Source: a virus (lineage: Duplodnaviria > Heunggongvirae > Uroviricota > Caudoviricetes). Taken from it: DNA of 41,886 bases. Positions 16,306-40,224 of the stretch are shown piece by piece (position 1 is the stretch's first letter; each line of letters opens with the position of its first letter). Where the stretch lies: the IMG/VR virus record IMGVR_UViG_2529292907_000015, positions 1 to 41,886 of that record; one strand, 5' to 3'. A program made the position numbers and the translations under genes. The notes under the pieces were generated by a model. That model searched no databases and was not told where the DNA came from. It worked only from the letters and a program-made list of their open reading frames with translations.

Positions 16306-16381
16306 GGCCCTTTAGCTCAGTGGTGAGAGCGAGCGACTCATAATCGCCAGGTCGCTGGTTCAAATCCAGCAAGGGCCACCA
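16306..16381 (+). tRNA. tRNA with CAU anticodon (Met or Ile2-type)
   Basis: Cloverleaf folded by hand: acceptor GGCCCTT/AAGGGCC, anticodon loop CUCAUAA, T-loop TTCAAAT, encoded CCA. Confidence 0.8.
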
Positions 16382-16382
16382 G

Positions 16383-16459
16383 CCGCCACTAGCTCATCAG
16401 GAAAGAGCGTCAACCCTTTAAGTTGAGTGTGCGAGGTTCGAGTCCCCGGTGGCGGTCCA
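16383..16459 (+). tRNA. tRNA-like gene, atypical (anticodon loop CCUUUAA, apparent UUU with C33)
   Basis: Acceptor CCGCCAC/GTGGCGG. Perfect 5-bp anticodon stem TCAAC/GTTGA. T-loop TTCGAGT with one A-C mismatch in the T-stem. Encoded CCA. Confidence 0.5.
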
Positions 16460-16461
16460 GT

Positions 16462-16537
<76 letters not shown>

Positions 16538-16540
16538 TAT

Positions 16541-16615
<75 letters not shown>

Positions 16616-25568: not shown

Positions 25569-25591
25569 ACCGCGCCGACGCGGTTTTTTTT
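25569..25591 (+). terminator. rho-independent terminator after the capsid gene
   Basis: Stem ACCGCG/CGCGGT with loop CCGA, followed by T8. Confidence 0.75.
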
Positions 25592-27076: not shown

Positions 27077-27135
27077 GGTTGTTAATGATTTTACCCACCC
27101 GCCGCTGGCGGGTTTTTTATTTTCAGGAGACGAAT

Positions 27136-27840
27136 ATGTCCTCTAATTTTGAGCGTTCGCAACTGACGAAAATTATGATTTCGTCTGCACCGGTAACAGC
27201 AGAAACCCTGGATTCTGCCAGCTATCTTGGCCTGAGCTGTACAATCAAAGAGGTGCAGTTTACCGCAGGACAAAAGCAGGATATTGATGTCACCACGCTG
27301 TGTTCTGTTGAGCAGGAAAATATTAACGGCCTTGGGGCTGCTTCAGAGATTTCCATGTCAGGCAACTTTTATCTCAATGCTGCCCAGAACGCGTTGCGCA
27401 GTGCCTATGACAATGACACCACGTATGGCTTTAAAGTTATTTTTCCGTCAGGCAACGGATTTACCTTTATGGCAGAGGTGCGTCAGCATACCTGGTCTGC
27501 AGGAACCAATGGTGTTGTGGCTGCAACGTTTTCCCTGCGCCTGAAAGGTAAACCTGTGCTGACGACAGAGCCGCTGAAAGTGAAGGTCGATTTAAACAGC
27601 ACGCTGCGGGTTTCTTCCGGAGCGAAACTTGAAATGGCGGTTGAGGCTGCGGGTGGTGTGCCGCCTTATTCTTATGCTTGGAAAAAAGGTGGTTCTCCTG
27701 TTTCCGGACAGACGGCGGCAACGTTCAGTAAGGCATCAGCAGCATCCGGTGATGCCGGTGCGTATACCTGCGAGATTTCTGATTCAGCAAGCCCGGTTAA
27801 CAAGGTGACCTCCACTTCCTGCACTGTTACCGTCAGTTAA
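27136..27840 (+). CDS. V: major tail protein with C-terminal Ig-like domain
   Basis: ATG 27136 with a CAGGAGA SD (the ORF track opens at 27079). C-terminal Ig-like segment. Precedes the G/GT chaperone pair. Confidence 0.75.
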   Translation: MSSNFERSQLTKIMISSAPVTAETLDSASYLGLSCTIKEVQFTAGQKQDIDVTTLCSVEQENINGLGAASEISMSGNFYLNAAQNALRSAYDNDTTYGFKVIFPSGNGFTFMAEVRQHTWSAGTNGVVAATFSLRLKGKPVLTTEPLKVKVDLNSTLRVSSGAKLEMAVEAAGGVPPYSYAWKKGGSPVSGQTAATFSKASAASGDAGAYTCEISDSASPVNKVTSTSCTVTVS

Positions 27841-28337
27841 TGAGGATAGATGTGATGACTAAAAATATCCGTAATCTGGCACTGGCAACGATGTCGGGGT
27901 TTCGCCATAAAACCGTTGATGTGCCTGAATGGGAAGGGGCAACGGTTGTGTTACGGGAACCTTCTGCAGAAGCCTGGTTGCGCTGGCAGGAGATCGTTAA
28001 AGCCAGGGAAGATGATACATCGCCATCTGTTGCAGAGCGTGCCCGCCGAAATCTGGAGGCGGACGTTGAACTGTTCATTGATGTTCTGTGTGATACCGGG
28101 CTGCAACCCGTATTTTCAGAGGGTGATCGTGAACAGGTGATTGCCGTGTATGGTCCGGTGCATGCCCGGCTTCTTCGCCAGTCTCTGGAACTGATCAGTG
28201 ATGCCGGAGAGGTTAAAAAAAGTAGCGCTTCCGGGGATGCGTTTTCTGATGATGCTGGCGCTCAGGATGGGGCGCACATTGTCAGAGTTACGCCGGGAAA
28301 TGTCCGCATCAGAAATCATGATGTGGGCAGAATTTGA
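27840..28337 (+). CDS. G: tail assembly chaperone G
   Basis: ATG 27840 is coupled to the V stop; an alternative ATG at 27855 has a GAGGA SD. A7 slippery run at 28215-28221. The overlapping downstream ORF is in the +1 frame. Confidence 0.7.
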   Translation: MRIDVMTKNIRNLALATMSGFRHKTVDVPEWEGATVVLREPSAEAWLRWQEIVKAREDDTSPSVAERARRNLEADVELFIDVLCDTGLQPVFSEGDREQVIAVYGPVHARLLRQSLELISDAGEVKKSSASGDAFSDDAGAQDGAHIVRVTPGNVRIRNHDVGRI

Positions 28338-28527
28338 CAGGTTCAGCCCGCTGGGGGACGAACGGGCTGATATCCGGGCTGCCCAGATTGTTTCAGCTGT
28401 TTACGGTGCGCAGGGGGTCAAAGTGCCACTGAATGATGCGCTTCTTCAGTGGGAGAAGGAGCAGACAGAAGGCACCTCAGATCCATTTGCTGAGATTGAG
28501 AAGGCATTATTTGTTGCAGCTCGATGA
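28198..28527 (+). CDS. T-domain reading frame of the G-T frameshift fusion chaperone
   Basis: Frame opens at 28195 with no independent SD and overlaps the G 3' end. Conserved G/GT arrangement upstream of the tape measure gene. Confidence 0.6.
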   Translation: MMPERLKKVALPGMRFLMMLALRMGRTLSELRREMSASEIMMWAEFDRFSPLGDERADIRAAQIVSAVYGAQGVKVPLNDALLQWEKEQTEGTSDPFAEIEKALFVAAR

Positions 28528-28968: not shown

Positions 28969-31900
28969 ATGAGTGTGGCGACATTACGTGAACTGATTAT
29001 TAAAATCTCGGCAAACTCCCGGTCATTCCAGTCAGAGATCGCCCGGGCTTCGCGTATGGGGCAGGATTACTACCGCACCATGCAGAACGGAGGTCGACAG
29101 TCTGCTGCTGCATCCCGTGAAATGCGGCGTGCACTGGCAGAAGTGACGGATCAGATAAATACAGCTAAATCTTCGGCACTGAATATGGCGGGGGCATTTG
29201 CCGGGGCTTTTGCTACCGGTCATCTTATTTCTCTCGCCGATGAGTGGAATTCAGTAAATGCCCGTCTGAAGCAGGCCTCACAGTCCAGTGATGATTTTCA
29301 GGCATCACAGCGTGAATTAATGGCGATCAGCCAGAGAACGGGGACGGCGTTTTCTGATAACGCCAGCCTTTTTGCCCGTTCTGCAGCTTCCATGCGGGAG
29401 TATGGTTACAGTTCTGAGGAGGTACTGAAAGTCACCGAGGCGATCTCCACGGGCCTGAAATTATCCGGTGCCAGTACAGCAGAAGCCAGTTCAGTGATCA
29501 CGCAGTTCAGTCAGGCACTGGCGCAGGGAGTGCTGCGCGGTGAAGAGTTTAACTCGGTGAATGAGAACGGCGATCGTGTTATTCGTGCGCTGGCTGCGGG
29601 AATGGGGGTTGCCCGTAAGGATCTGAAGGCCATGGCGGATAACGGAAAGTTGACCGCCGATAAGGTTGTTCCTGCACTGATTAGTCAGCTTGGGGCATTA
29701 CGTGATGAATATGCGGCAATGCCTGATACGGTTTCATCCTCTGCAACCAAAGTTGAAAACGCCTTTATGGCCTGGGTTGGTGGTGCGAACGAGGCAAGCG
29801 GAGTGACAAAGACACTCACCGGGGTGTTGAATGGTGTTGCAGACAATATTGATACCGTGGCTACTGCAGCTGGCGCACTGGTTGCCGTCGGGGTAGCCCG
29901 ATATTTTGGCAATATGGCGTCGTCTGCTGGATCTGCAACTGCCGGATTAATTACTGCAGCCAGAAACGAAGTGGTTCTTGCTGAAGCGCAACTTCGGGGG
30001 ACACAGATAGCAACCGCCAGGGCGCGTGCGGCGGTTTATCGTGCGCAACAGGCGGTTGTTGCTGCTCGCGGTACCGAAAGGCAGGCCGCAGCAGAAGCGA
30101 AGCTGACAGCTGCCCAGGCGTCACTTACCCGTAATATTGCGGCCAGAACAGCGGCACAGACAACGCTGAATACTGTCACGTCAGTGGGGAGTCGTCTGTT
30201 AAGTGGTGCGCTGGGGCTGGTTGGTGGTGTGCCGGGACTCGTCATGCTGGGGGCGACGGCCTGGTACGCGATGTATCAGAATCAGGAGCAGGCCAGAGAA
30301 TCTGCACGCCAGTATGCCGCAACAATCGACGAAATTCGCCAGAAAACGTCGGCAATGTCGCTTCCTGAAGCGTCAGATAATGAGGAAAAGACGCGGCAGG
30401 CACTTGATGAGCAAAACAGGTTAATTGACGAGCAGAAAAGTAAGATTAAATCCTTACAGGAAAAAATTGCTGGCTATCAGTATGTGCTGGCAAACCCGGG
30501 CTGGACAACCGATAACGGTTTTATGATTAACCACATGACGTCGGTAAAAACTGTCACAGAAGGGCTTGCAGAAGCAACAAATCAACTGGCAGTTGAACAG
30601 TCCCGTCTCACACAAATGCAGGGCAAAGCGCAATCCATTCAGGATGTGCTTGCCGGGCTGGAGGAGCGACGGGTGGCGTTGATCCGTCAACAGGCAGCGG
30701 AACAAAACAAAGCGTATCAGTCCCTGTTGATCATGAATGGGCAGCATACCGAGTTTAATCGCCTTCTCGGGCTCGGTAATGAATTACTTCAGCAGCGACA
30801 GGGGCTGGTGAATGTACCGTTACGGCTACCACAGGCAACCCTGGATGATAAACAGCAGACCGCACTGAATAACAGCAAGCGCGAACTGGCTCTGTCCCGC
30901 CTGAAGGGGGAAGCGCGTGAGCGTGCCCGACTGGGCTATGCTGCGGATGATCTCGGCTTTGTGGGAGAGGCGTATCAGACAGCCAGACAGAATTATATCA
31001 ATAACTCACTGGATGCCTGGCGAAATAACCAGGCAAATAAACCGCATAAAAAACCGAAGCGGAAAAAACAGAGGATATTTATAAACGGCTGATTAAACAG
31101 CAAAAAGAACAGATAGCACTGGCAGGGCAGAATACTGAACTGGCTAAGATGAAATATCAGGTCAGTCAGGGCGAATTATCAACCCTGTCAGAAGCGCAGA
31201 AAAAAACGCTTTTGCAGAATGCAGCACTCATCGACCAGAAAAAGATTCGTGAGCAGCTTGCTGCGTATGAGAGCAGTCTGGCGGACAGTAATGCCAGTGC
31301 CCGGGCATCTGACGAAGCGCAGTTGCTGGGATATGGTGAAGGCTCACGGATGCGTGAACGACTCCAGGAAATGTGGAGTATCCGGCAGACGTTTGAGCAG
31401 AAAAATAACGAGCTGCTGAGACAGTATCAGGCCGGAGAAATTGAAGAAGCCCTGTGGAAACAGGAGAAAGAACTGAATAAAAAATATCTGGAAGAGCGTC
31501 TCAGCGATCAGCAGAATTATTATGCAAAGGCCGATGCTTTACGTAATAACTGGAATGCCGGACTCCAGGAGGGACTGACCAACTGGGCAGACAGTGCCAC
31601 CGATTATGCTTCACAGGCGGCAGATGCTGTCGTTTCCACGATGGACGGGCTGGTATCAAATATTTCCGATGCACTGGCCGGGAATGTTGTGGACTGGAGG
31701 AACTGGGGGAGTTCAGTTCTCCGGGAAGTTTCAAAAATTCTGATGAATGCAGCCATTGTTAACGGACTGAAATCACTCTCCGGTGCCGGAGGGTGGCTTG
31801 GTACGGTCGGCGGATGGATTTCGGGGGCAGTGGCAAACGCAAAAGGTGGTGTTTACACATCGGCAAATCTGAGTGCTTACAGTAACACTATTGTGGATAC

Positions 31901-32195
31901 ACCGACGTATTTTGCTTTTGCGAAAGGTGCCGGGTTGATGGGCGAGGCCGGGCCTGAAGCAATCATGCCACTGACACGGGCAGCGGACGGCTCTCTTGGG
32001 GTCAGGGCCATTGGAAATGTGAATGGTGGCGGTGGATTTGTTTATTCTCCCGTGTATCACATCAGCATTCAGAATCAAGGGAGCAATGGCGAGATAGATG
32101 CGCGCTCAGCCAGGGGACTGGTGGATCTGATCGACAGCAGGGTTGTGTCAATTATGCAGTCATCGCGTCGGGATGGAGGATTGTACAGTGCCTGA
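28969..32195 (+). CDS. H: tail tape measure protein, split into two reading frames near an A6 run
   Basis: ORF 28969..31092 (707 aa) has tape-measure-like N-terminal and coiled-coil regions. The next frame opens at 31050 and continues to 32195 with a Gly-rich C-terminal region. Inserting one A at 31048-31053 gives one continuous ORF. Confidence 0.75.
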
Positions 32196-33231: not shown

Positions 33232-33975
33232 ATGACAGAGACAGAATCAGTGATTCTGGCGCACGTCCGGCGATGTGCGCCAGCGGAGTCGTGCGGCTTC
33301 GTGGTGAGAACGCCGGAAGGGGAAAGATATTTTCCCTGCGTGAATATCTCCGGTGAGCCGGAGGATTATTTCCGGATGGCTCCGGAGGACTGGCTGCAGG
33401 CCAAAATGCAGGGTGAGATTGTGGCGCTGGTCCACAGTCACCCCGGTGGTCTGCCCTGGCTGAGTGAGGCTGACCGGCGGCTGCAGGTGCAGAGTGATTT
33501 GCCGTGGTGGCTGGTCTGCCGGGGGGCGATTCACAAGTTCCGCTGTGTGCCACATCTTACCGGGCGGCGCTTTGAGCACGGGGTGACGGACTGTTACACG
33601 CTGTTCCGGGATGCATACCATCTGGCGGGAATTGAGATGCCGGATTTTCATCGCGGGGATGACTGGTGGCGTAACGGTCAGAATCTCTATCTGGATAATC
33701 TGGAGGCCACGGGGCTGTATCAGGTGCCGTTGTCATCAGCACAACCGGGCGATGTGCTGTTGTGCTGTTTTGGTTCATCGGTGCCGAATCATGCCGCCAT
33801 TTACTGTGGTGACGGCGAGCTGCTGCACCATATTCCTGAACAACTGAGCAAACGAGAGAGGTATACCGACAAATGGCAGCGACGCACACACTCCCTCTGG
33901 CGTCACCGGGCATGGCACGCATCTGCCTTTACGGGGATTTACAACGATTTGGCCGCCGCATCGACCTTCGTGTAA
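33232..33975 (+). CDS. K: tail assembly protein K (Mov34/JAMM plus NlpC/P60-like)
   Basis: ATG 33232, inside the longer 33157..33975 ORF. HSHP motif present. Position is between L and I. Confidence 0.75.
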   Translation: MTETESVILAHVRRCAPAESCGFVVRTPEGERYFPCVNISGEPEDYFRMAPEDWLQAKMQGEIVALVHSHPGGLPWLSEADRRLQVQSDLPWWLVCRGAIHKFRCVPHLTGRRFEHGVTDCYTLFRDAYHLAGIEMPDFHRGDDWWRNGQNLYLDNLEATGLYQVPLSSAQPGDVLLCCFGSSVPNHAAIYCGDGELLHHIPEQLSKRERYTDKWQRRTHSLWRHRAWHASAFTGIYNDLAAASTFV

Positions 33976-34519
33976 AACGGGGGCTGAAGCCATCCGGGCG
34001 CTGTCCACACAGGTCCCGGCGTTTCGTCAGAAACTGAATGACGGCTGGTATCAGGTGCGCATTGCCGGGCGTGATGCAGGCGAAAATGAATTATCTGCCC
34101 GTCTTAATGAACCGCTGGCAAATGGTGCCGTGATCCACATCGTTCCGCGTCTGGCGGGTGCCAAAAGTGGCGGTGTGTTTCAGGCGGTGCTGGGTGCGGC
34201 GCTGATTGCGGTGGCATGGTGGAACCCTGTTGGCTGGCTGGGGGCCGCGGCTGTATCTGGTATGTATGCAGCAGGGGCCAGTATGATCCTGGGTGGTGTG
34301 GCGCAGATGCTGGCACCGAAAGCCAGGACGCCCACGGCAGCCAGTACAGATAACGGCAAACAGAACACCTATTTCTCGTCACTGGATAACATGGTTGCCC
34401 AGGGCAATGTTCTGCCTGTTCTGTACGGGGAAATGCGCGTGGGGTCACGTGTTGTTTCTCAGGAGATCAGCACGGCAGACGAAGGGGACGGTGGTCAGGT
34501 TGTGGTGATTGGTCGCTGA
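33873..34519 (+). CDS. I: tail assembly protein I, frame-disrupted at an A4 run
   Basis: N-terminal 34 codons (MAATHTLPLASPGMARICLYGDLQRFGRRIDLRVK) are in frame 0 from ATG 33873. The rest (TGAEAIRAL...GGQVVVIGR) is in frame 2. The junction is at AAAA 33974-33977, and one extra A gives a continuous lambda-I-like protein. Confidence 0.7.
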
Positions 34520-38781: not shown

Positions 38782-38790
38782 GGGGGGGGG
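38782..38790. repeat. G9 homopolymer immediately upstream of the side tail fibre start codon
   Basis: GGGGGGGGG then AAT then ATG (38794). The tract overlaps the SD position. Confidence 0.9.
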
Positions 38791-38793
38791 AAT

Positions 38794-40224
38794 ATGGCAG
38801 TAAAGATTTCAGGTGTTCTTCTGGATGGCGCAGGCCTTCCTGTTGCTGGCTGTCGTATTGAATTGCGGGCCAGGAAAACCAGCTCCACGGTAGTGGTGCA
38901 TGTCGCCTCTTCAACACTGACTGCGGAAAATGGGCAATACAGCATCGATGTAGAGCCAGGTTACTACGACGTTACATTATGGCGGGATGGATACCCGCCG
39001 ATACGTGCCGGTGATATTTGTGTAACCGAAACTGATAAGCCTGACACGCTAAATGCATTCCTGGATGCACCGACAGAGGCAGATCTTCGTCCTGAGGTAA
39101 TGAAACAGTTTGAAGAAATGCTGAAAGAGGCTATTCGCGTGGCCGGAGAGGTGGAAAGTAACAGACATGCATCGGAAGAGGCTGCAAATTCAGCCCGGCA
39201 GAGCGAACAGAATGCCAGCAAACACGCTGCTGAAGCAGGAAAAGCGGCGGAGCAGTCCGGCAGTAATGCGCAGGCTACCGCAAGTGCCCGTGATGACTCT
39301 CAGCGGTATGCCATGAGTGCCGCTGCCAGCGCAGAGAGTGCAGAAAGAAGCGAGAGAGAGGCAACCGAATGTGCCAGCTCAGCCTCACAATCAGCGTCCA
39401 GCGCAGCACTGTCTGCTTCGACCGCTACTGAAAAGGAACTGGGGGCTGGAAATCATGCGTCGTCTGCAAAAGAAAGTAAAACCGCTGCAGAGCTCGCGGC
39501 TGAGAGGGCTACTTCTGCTGCTCAAAATGCGGCTGCTGATGCAGCCACACAATTGCGCAACGAAGTTCGTGAGGAGATAGACAGGGCATCGGGGCTGGCA
39601 GAAAGGGCCGAGGCAGCAAACGAGGGCGCCTGGCAGGCTCTTGCTGAAGCACAGGAAATAGCCAAAACACCCGGACCTCCTGGTGATAAGGGAGATAAGG
39701 GTGACAAAGGTGACAAGGGGGACAAAGGTGACAAGGGAGACAAAGGTGACAAGGGGGACAAGGGGGAGGGGATTGCACCAGCCGGCGTATTGCGGACTAC
39801 ACCGATGGGCACTGATTTCAACGATGCTGGTATGGGGACATATGCCTATCCATTATTAGGACAGGAAAACAGTAACGCCGCCGCAGTAAGTAATCACCCC
39901 ATTCCCGGTTCAACAGGTAACACAGCCTGGGGGATTGTGTGGGCTGCACCCCGAAGCATCTACCCCGCTCAGGTGTTCATGAATTACCAAGGGCAGATGC
40001 TATCCAGAATCAAGGCCAACTACGGCTGGTCAGCCTGGTGGCAGTTTGCCGGAAAAACACTCAGTGAATATCCCGGAACGTATCTGTTTACCGTAACGAC
40101 CGCTGCGGTCAGATATCTGCAGGAAGTTTCCGGTAGTACGCTGACACCACAACGAGCAGGAACCTGGGTTGCCCTGGGGGAAACGACCGCGAACGGTACA
40201 ACACTATTTCAGAGGATAAGGTAA
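38794..40224 (+). CDS. stf: side tail fibre protein with collagen-like (GDK)9 repeat
   Basis: 476-aa product whose N-terminus (MAVKISGVLLDGAG...) resembles lambda Stf as recalled. Ala/Ser-rich coiled region, then PGPPGDK(GDK)8GEG, then a C-terminal domain. Confidence 0.8.
   Translation: MAVKISGVLLDGAGLPVAGCRIELRARKTSSTVVVHVASSTLTAENGQYSIDVEPGYYDVTLWRDGYPPIRAGDICVTETDKPDTLNAFLDAPTEADLRPEVMKQFEEMLKEAIRVAGEVESNRHASEEAANSARQSEQNASKHAAEAGKAAEQSGSNAQATASARDDSQRYAMSAAASAESAERSEREATECASSASQSASSAALSASTATEKELGAGNHASSAKESKTAAELAAERATSAAQNAAADAATQLRNEVREEIDRASGLAERAEAANEGAWQALAEAQEIAKTPGPPGDKGDKGDKGDKGDKGDKGDKGDKGDKGEGIAPAGVLRTTPMGTDFNDAGMGTYAYPLLGQENSNAAAVSNHPIPGSTGNTAWGIVWAAPRSIYPAQVFMNYQGQMLSRIKANYGWSAWWQFAGKTLSEYPGTYLFTVTTAAVRYLQEVSGSTLTPQRAGTWVALGETTANGTTLFQRIR
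39682..39762. repeat. nine tandem 9-bp units (GGNGAYAAR) encoding Gly-Asp-Lys
   Basis: Counted directly from the sequence. In-frame, with degenerate third codon positions. Confidence 0.9.

Follow-up and report, generated by a model that had tools for sequence, protein, structure and literature searches.

In phage lambda, expression of the tail assembly chaperones G and GT involves low-level -1 frameshifting (PMC5009743). In the virus record IMGVR_UViG_2529292907_000015, the whole stretch of which (41,886 nt) was analysed and is called the window here, the frame of gene T lies +1 to that of gene G at a run of seven adenines. The question that this locus raises is whether the +1 relation belongs to the phage, where it would be read by a true +1 or transcriptional-slippage frameshift, as the title of an earlier note on this DNA had it, or whether one base is missing from the record. 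Here we compare the overlap of G and T with that of near-identical and distant prophages, count run lengths in public data, and examine the other single-base differences that separate the window from its closest relatives.

Genes G and T in the deposited record

The window carries on the + strand, in this order, a major tail protein gene (27136-27840), the product of which has an Ig-like C-terminal domain, then G, T, a zinc-ribbon moron, and the tape measure gene from 28969. G and T are two overlapping open reading frames flanked by the genes for the major tail and tape measure proteins, the arrangement by which a G/GT pair is recognized. Pfam domain PF06222 (Phage_TAC_1) spans residues 1-123 of G (E = 1e-56), and PF06223 (Phage_tail_T) matches the T frame at residues 151-220 of the reconstructed fusion (E = 2e-19). 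The moron (PF13248, 28585-28926) varies among relatives, some of which have it and others, such as MS6192, do not.

In the record as deposited, the G frame runs from an ATG at 27855 (or 27840) through GTT AAA AAA AGT to a TGA at 28335-28337 and, counted from 27855, gives a product of 160 aa. The T frame follows a TGA at 28192-28194, is open from 28195, and is closed by a TGA at 28525-28527. The run itself, at 28215-28221, reads AAAAAAA and is flanked by T on one side and G on the other. The earlier note had described seven adenines at this place and a T frame open from 28195 in the +1 relation to G, and the letters of the window bear out both descriptions. The -1 frame is blocked by a TAA at 28211-28213, and the overlap holds no in-phase X XXY YYZ heptamer combined with T in -1; the codon that follows AAA AAA into the A site in the zero frame is AGU. 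A and T runs of at least 7 nt occur ten times in 23.6 kb, and the A7 run alone is thus not unusual; it is notable because it lies exactly at the conserved slip-site position of the G/T family.

Insertion of a single A changes the zero frame to GTT AAA AAA AAG TAG, shortens G to 123 aa and places T in -1, which is what the earlier note had foreseen for a run of eight, with G ending at a TAG just behind A AAA AAG. With the A restored, gene G, the tail assembly chaperone of the Phage_TAC_1 family, would occupy 27855-28225 (TAG at 28223-28225). The slip site, 28215-28222, is A7 followed by G in the record and A8 followed by G in relatives. The T segment of the GT fusion (Phage_tail_T) would begin at 28222 with VALPGMRFLMM and end at 28527. 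The remaining part of the deposited G product, a 38-aa extension (SSASGDAF...VGRI, 28221-28337), would then be spurious, a product of the missing A, which adds 38 false codons to G and shifts T into +1. All other contigs with an identical T or major tail protein have a G of 123 aa in their gene calls, and exact copies of the 160-aa product were found in only two places, the draft assembly GCA_000249615.2 and the Logan assembly of SRR094138.

Length of the run and reading frame of T in related prophages

The window is 100% identical to AIFW01000009.1 of GCA_000249615.2 over the 20.5 kb that were fetched, which makes this contig the origin of the window. Near-identical prophages in independent assemblies were found through exact copies of the T protein and the major tail protein of the window. 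One of these, L189 (GCA_012452065.1), together with nine similar places, differs over 8,705 nt by no substitution at all and has A8 instead of A7 in the G run and A7 instead of A6 in a run of the tape measure gene. L200 (GCA_013074065.1; 19,058 nt, 5 substitutions) and L203 (GCA_012619285.1; 17,432 nt, 4 substitutions) differ at these two runs and at a third, in the tail assembly gene gpI, where they have A5 and the window A4. L197 (GCA_054888795.1; 12,355 nt, 6 substitutions) differs at the G run and at 13101, 13102, 13654 and 15554. The sequence A AAA AAG TAG with T in -1 is present in L189, L200, L203, L197, L206 and others. The earlier note had proposed a comparison of slip sites across related prophages, in which a shared A7 and +1 arrangement would speak for a real +1 site; the opposite was found, with A8 and T in -1 in the near-identical copies.

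Complete genomes of E. coli were searched with exact-match probes, an 80-mer with A8 and a 79-mer with A7 that have identical 36-nt flanks, and these matched A8 in 670 genomes and A7 in 13 (13/683). Nine of the 13 belong to one batch of porcine ETEC genomes (CP1226xx-CP1229xx), which also contains a record with A6. The short slip sites clustered in this batch (CP122620, CP122872 and siblings, L005 and L006) are probably homopolymer errors too. With a pattern that allowed 6-9 A's, the viral contigs of IMG/VR gave 100 A8 and 3 A7 among 103 loci, and the metagenome contigs gave A8 in 53 of 53 and A7 in none. Among the first nine loci fetched, A8 was present in tcmA_3 (99.4% identical), M9, EH01-18-04-A, ECONIH1 (88.5% identical) and the phages PhiR49_2 and Evi, while two records had A7 and one had A6; in those three, PGAP annotates G as an incomplete pseudogene. 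tcmA_3 was considered as a reference, being the closest complete-genome match in G/T, but has many frameshifted pseudogenes of its own and was set aside.

More distant relatives were examined as far as Burkholderia, and T lies in -1 relative to G in all of them apart from one record. The heptamer is G GGA AAG in HK97 and mEp506, A AAA AAG in Stx phages and Bordetella PHB09, and A AAA AAA in Burkholderia KS9, where the product is annotated as a join. The Klebsiella phage ST13-OXA48phi12.2 (L172, at about 590-610) has a G/T overlap of 10 nt (GCA AAG TAA), also with T in -1, that holds no X XXY YYZ heptamer; a single A AAG adjoins the stop, and the only plausible shift there is single-tRNA slippage on that A AAG. 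The exceptional record is LC727891 (Stx1_JNE122398, L176), the only one in the sample with T in +1. It was rejected as a natural +1 site: its slip site is unchanged, the match to T falls into three pieces, and the span of that match is about 10 nt shorter than in the records of sibling Stx phages, so that it looks like an indel inside T and not another type of frameshift. A +1 relation of T to G is thus conserved in no relative, close or distant, among those compared.

Substitutions in the overlap were scored in 47 unique relatives over 28222-28337. Seven of the eight variable columns fall at third positions of T codons, and all nine distinct substitutions are synonymous in T (9/9), while the same nine are nonsynonymous in the frame of the G extension of the window. 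This frame-specific pattern indicates that the 38-aa tail of G is not a conserved protein sequence.

These observations bear directly on the possibility that A7 is real and functional, so that +1 (or -2) slippage of tRNA-Lys, or slippage of RNA polymerase, would yield GT; in the latter case one A would be lost, the A6 mRNA encoding a direct G-T fusion, or one would be gained, bringing the canonical site back. The +1 relation is there in the deposited record, tRNA-Lys can re-pair anywhere along an A run, and shifts other than -1 are known for G/GT genes, namely -2 in Mu, and forward shifts in 350 entries of the SEA-PHAGES data set (PMC5009743, PMC10885494). The tail chaperones of Mu (-2) and of some actinophages and the haloarchaeal phage HSTV-2 (+1) do reach the +1 frame, as the record appears to. 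In those phages, however, the relation is conserved among relatives, whereas here only one draft assembly and a few error-prone records show it, and the near-identical copies have A8 with T in -1. The G extension bears no trace of coding selection, and three other genes broken in the same record are beyond rescue by recoding, for example at the A4 run of gpI. The run is 7 nt here and 8 nt in relatives, whereas polymerase slippage is expected on long A/T runs, of about 9 or more, or on shorter ones in a stimulatory context; efficient slippage has been documented for runs of about 9 (PMC5009743). Judged from the sequence comparisons, a functional +1, -2 or transcriptional-slippage site is contradicted by every comparative test, and we regard it as extremely improbable. 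Just as little credence is given to the idea that the isolate truly has A7 and yet makes some G-T along with normal G, by these kinds of tRNA-Lys slippage or by polymerase slippage that gives A8 or A6 in part of the transcripts, as a 'leaky' mutant of a programmed frameshift site. The reading in the title of the earlier note is therefore not supported, given that no relative conserves +1, that A7 is rare and clustered by batch, and that the G extension is non-coding. The A7/+1 arrangement is real in the record and does not appear to be so in the organism.

Single-base deficits elsewhere in the prophage

In the comparisons with L197, L200 and L203, all seven distinct indels (7/7) are one-base deficits of the window in A or T runs, and only 4-6 substitutions per comparison stand beside them. 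Four genes are broken in the record by such deficits, namely those for the antiterminator Q, G, the tape measure protein and gpI, and with one more A in the run G has 123 aa, the tape measure protein 1075 and gpI 215, each again at full length. The tape measure gene (28969-32195, +) is split in the record into open reading frames of 707 aa (28969-31092) and 348 aa (31149-32195), between which tblastn shows a change of frame; the run at 31048-31053 is A6 in the window and A7, with the gene intact, in L036, L189, L200 and L203. The gene for the tail assembly protein gpI (Lambda_tail_I, 33873-34519, +) has A4 at 33974-33977 where L029, L200 and L203 have A5. In the antiterminator gene Q (15423-16111, +), the run at 15554-15560 is A7 in the window and A8 in L197, and it is here that the tblastn match passes from frame 3 to frame 2. 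The four gene-breaking runs, at 28215-28221, 31048-31053, 33974-33977 and 15554-15560 of the window, correspond to 127889-127895, 130722-130727, 133648-133651 and 115228-115234 of AIFW01000009.1.

Several smaller differences were seen alongside these. The K gene that overlaps gpI keeps a correct end in spite of the change at the A4/A5 run, which makes its TGA stop a TAA. The three T-run deficits at 13101-13102 and 13654 (T4/T5, T6/T7 and T5/T6 relative to L197 and E41) fall within or close to intergenic parts of the early region. In the near-identical copy L194/L205 a base is missing at the position corresponding to 28367 of the window, just before an IS-type gene. T8 at 25584 and T6 at 27113 were considered as further errors on comparison with MS6192 and were rejected, as both are also present in L189, which has no mismatch to the window; T6/T7 at 27113 is polymorphic in the population, and both are real lineage alleles. 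A G9 run at 38782-38790 lies directly upstream of the start codon of the tail fibre gene at 38794, where MS6192 and tcmA_3 have GGGGT-G, and may be either a tract of truly variable length or one more error of run length.

A deficit of one A could also have arisen in the bacterium itself, by a genuine, private slipped-strand loss in this isolate that left the prophage tail-defective. G would then carry a 38-aa nonsense tail, no GT would be made, and the frameshifts in Q, the tape measure gene and gpI would be real. Natural mutations are concentrated in homopolymers, prophages do decay, and rare A7 alleles are also found in other records. The NCBI assembly agrees with the Logan assembly of SRR094138 in having the A7 run and the A6 run of the tape measure gene, and if SRR094138 had been sequenced on an accurate platform, the A7 deletion would be real. 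The two assemblies, however, are probably derived from common reads and hence are not independent evidence. The Logan assembly agrees with the window except for three more one-base homopolymer deletions (TT to T and, twice, A6 to A5), which are further technical undercalls in the same DNA and indicate that the underlying reads are visibly prone to undercalling homopolymers. Seven indels, every one a deletion, against about 5 substitutions is also far too indel-rich for divergence from near-identical relatives, and other signs of decay are absent: the head proteins are complete, with 96-100% identity to intact relatives (100% for most of them in the comparison with MS6192), and there are no nonsense codons or IS elements. 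About one indel per substitution, all of them deletions, together with reads that undercall, fits systematic undercalling, and fits natural decay much less. We consider a private deletion unlikely, and the A7 deficit is almost certainly technical, to judge from these comparisons.

The missing A is thus, with high confidence, part of a systematic homopolymer undercall in GCA_000249615.2. The AIFW accession is presumably a 454-era project of the DEC collection, and this was not used as evidence. Of the two explanations that the earlier note had weighed, a true +1 or transcriptional-slippage frameshift and another single-A undercall, the second is favoured by the A8 of near-identical prophages and by six other one-base deficits, three of them gene-breaking. 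The A7/+1 arrangement is very probably a one-base undercall in an old draft assembly, and the true site an A8 run in which A AAA AAG is followed by a stop and T is read in -1. An undercall of one base in a homopolymer can in this way make a textbook -1 signal look like an exotic +1, complete with an invented 38-aa tail. Three more prophage genes are broken in this way in the draft assembly, and pseudogene, 'defective prophage' or recoding calls made from the GCA_000249615.2 record would mislead.

The predicted -1 site and its counterparts in HK97, lambda and dnaX

In all likelihood the locus is an ordinary G/GT tail-assembly-chaperone pair of the lambda/HK97 type with a -1 frameshift, already known in kind. 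Genes gp13/gp14 of HK97 are the direct homologue, with 61% amino-acid identity to the reconstructed GT; they too follow the major tail gene and precede the tape measure gene, with T in -1, and their GenBank annotation reads "translated due to a -1 frameshift". The gp15 moron of HK97 follows T, and the zinc-ribbon gene of this prophage is at the same spot. The two differ in the heptamer, which in HK97 is G GGA AAG, 5 codons before the stop of G, and in this prophage group is A AAA AAG, adjoined at its 3' end by the stop. Lambda G/GT, with a slip heptamer of G GGA AAG, has its architecture, presumed role and Pfam families in common with this prophage and is more distant from it in sequence than HK97. 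The use of A AAA AAG followed by a stop to drive G/GT in HK97-like prophages of E. coli is already known in kind.

At the restored site most ribosomes would make G (123 aa) and terminate at the TAG that adjoins A AAA AAG. A minority would slip one base back on the heptamer, with tRNA-Lys re-pairing from AAA-AAG to AAA-AAA; the next codon would then be GTA, and the -1 frame would be read through T. The predicted product is a 224-aa G-T fusion (...GEVKKK|VALPGMRF...), the junction peptide of which would be ...EVKKKVALPGMR (also given as ...GEVKKKVALPGMR). In lambda, G and GT bind the tape measure protein, the T domain recruits the major tail protein, and tail assembly needs G and GT at a ratio of about 30:1 (PMC5009743). 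By analogy, the fusion predicted here would link the tape measure protein to the major tail protein, and a low GT:G ratio is expected. We infer -1 slippage at this site from the homology with HK97 and lambda, from conservation, and from the known tendency of A AAA AAG to shift in E. coli.

Of the heptamers tested in E. coli, A_AAA_AAG is the most prone to shifting; it is the site used in dnaX and depends on a single tRNA-Lys (PMC5009743). The heptamer of dnaX is identical to that predicted here and is decoded by the single tRNA-Lys(mnm5s2UUU). Shifting in dnaX reaches about 50% with the help of a strong SD-like stimulator upstream and a stem-loop downstream; unlike dnaX, the prophage site has no stimulator that can be demonstrated as conserved. 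The stretch 28222-28300 has a folding energy of -31.7 kcal/mol (z = -2.15), and among six relatives only an invariant hairpin of 7 bp survives, about 36 nt downstream, where it coincides with a conserved LALRxGR peptide; no covariation was found in this hairpin among the six, and no conserved stimulatory RNA structure was found from the fold of 28222-28300 and these relatives. The SD-like sequence GGAGAGG, which ends 2 nt before the run, is GGCGAGG in most relatives and was not taken as a signal.

The prophage also carries four tRNA genes at 16306-16615, between Q and the holin gene, for Met(CAT), Lys(TTT), Thr(TGT) and Gly(TCC). The codons of the A AAA AAG slip site are precisely those read by the tRNA-Lys(UUU) of this set.
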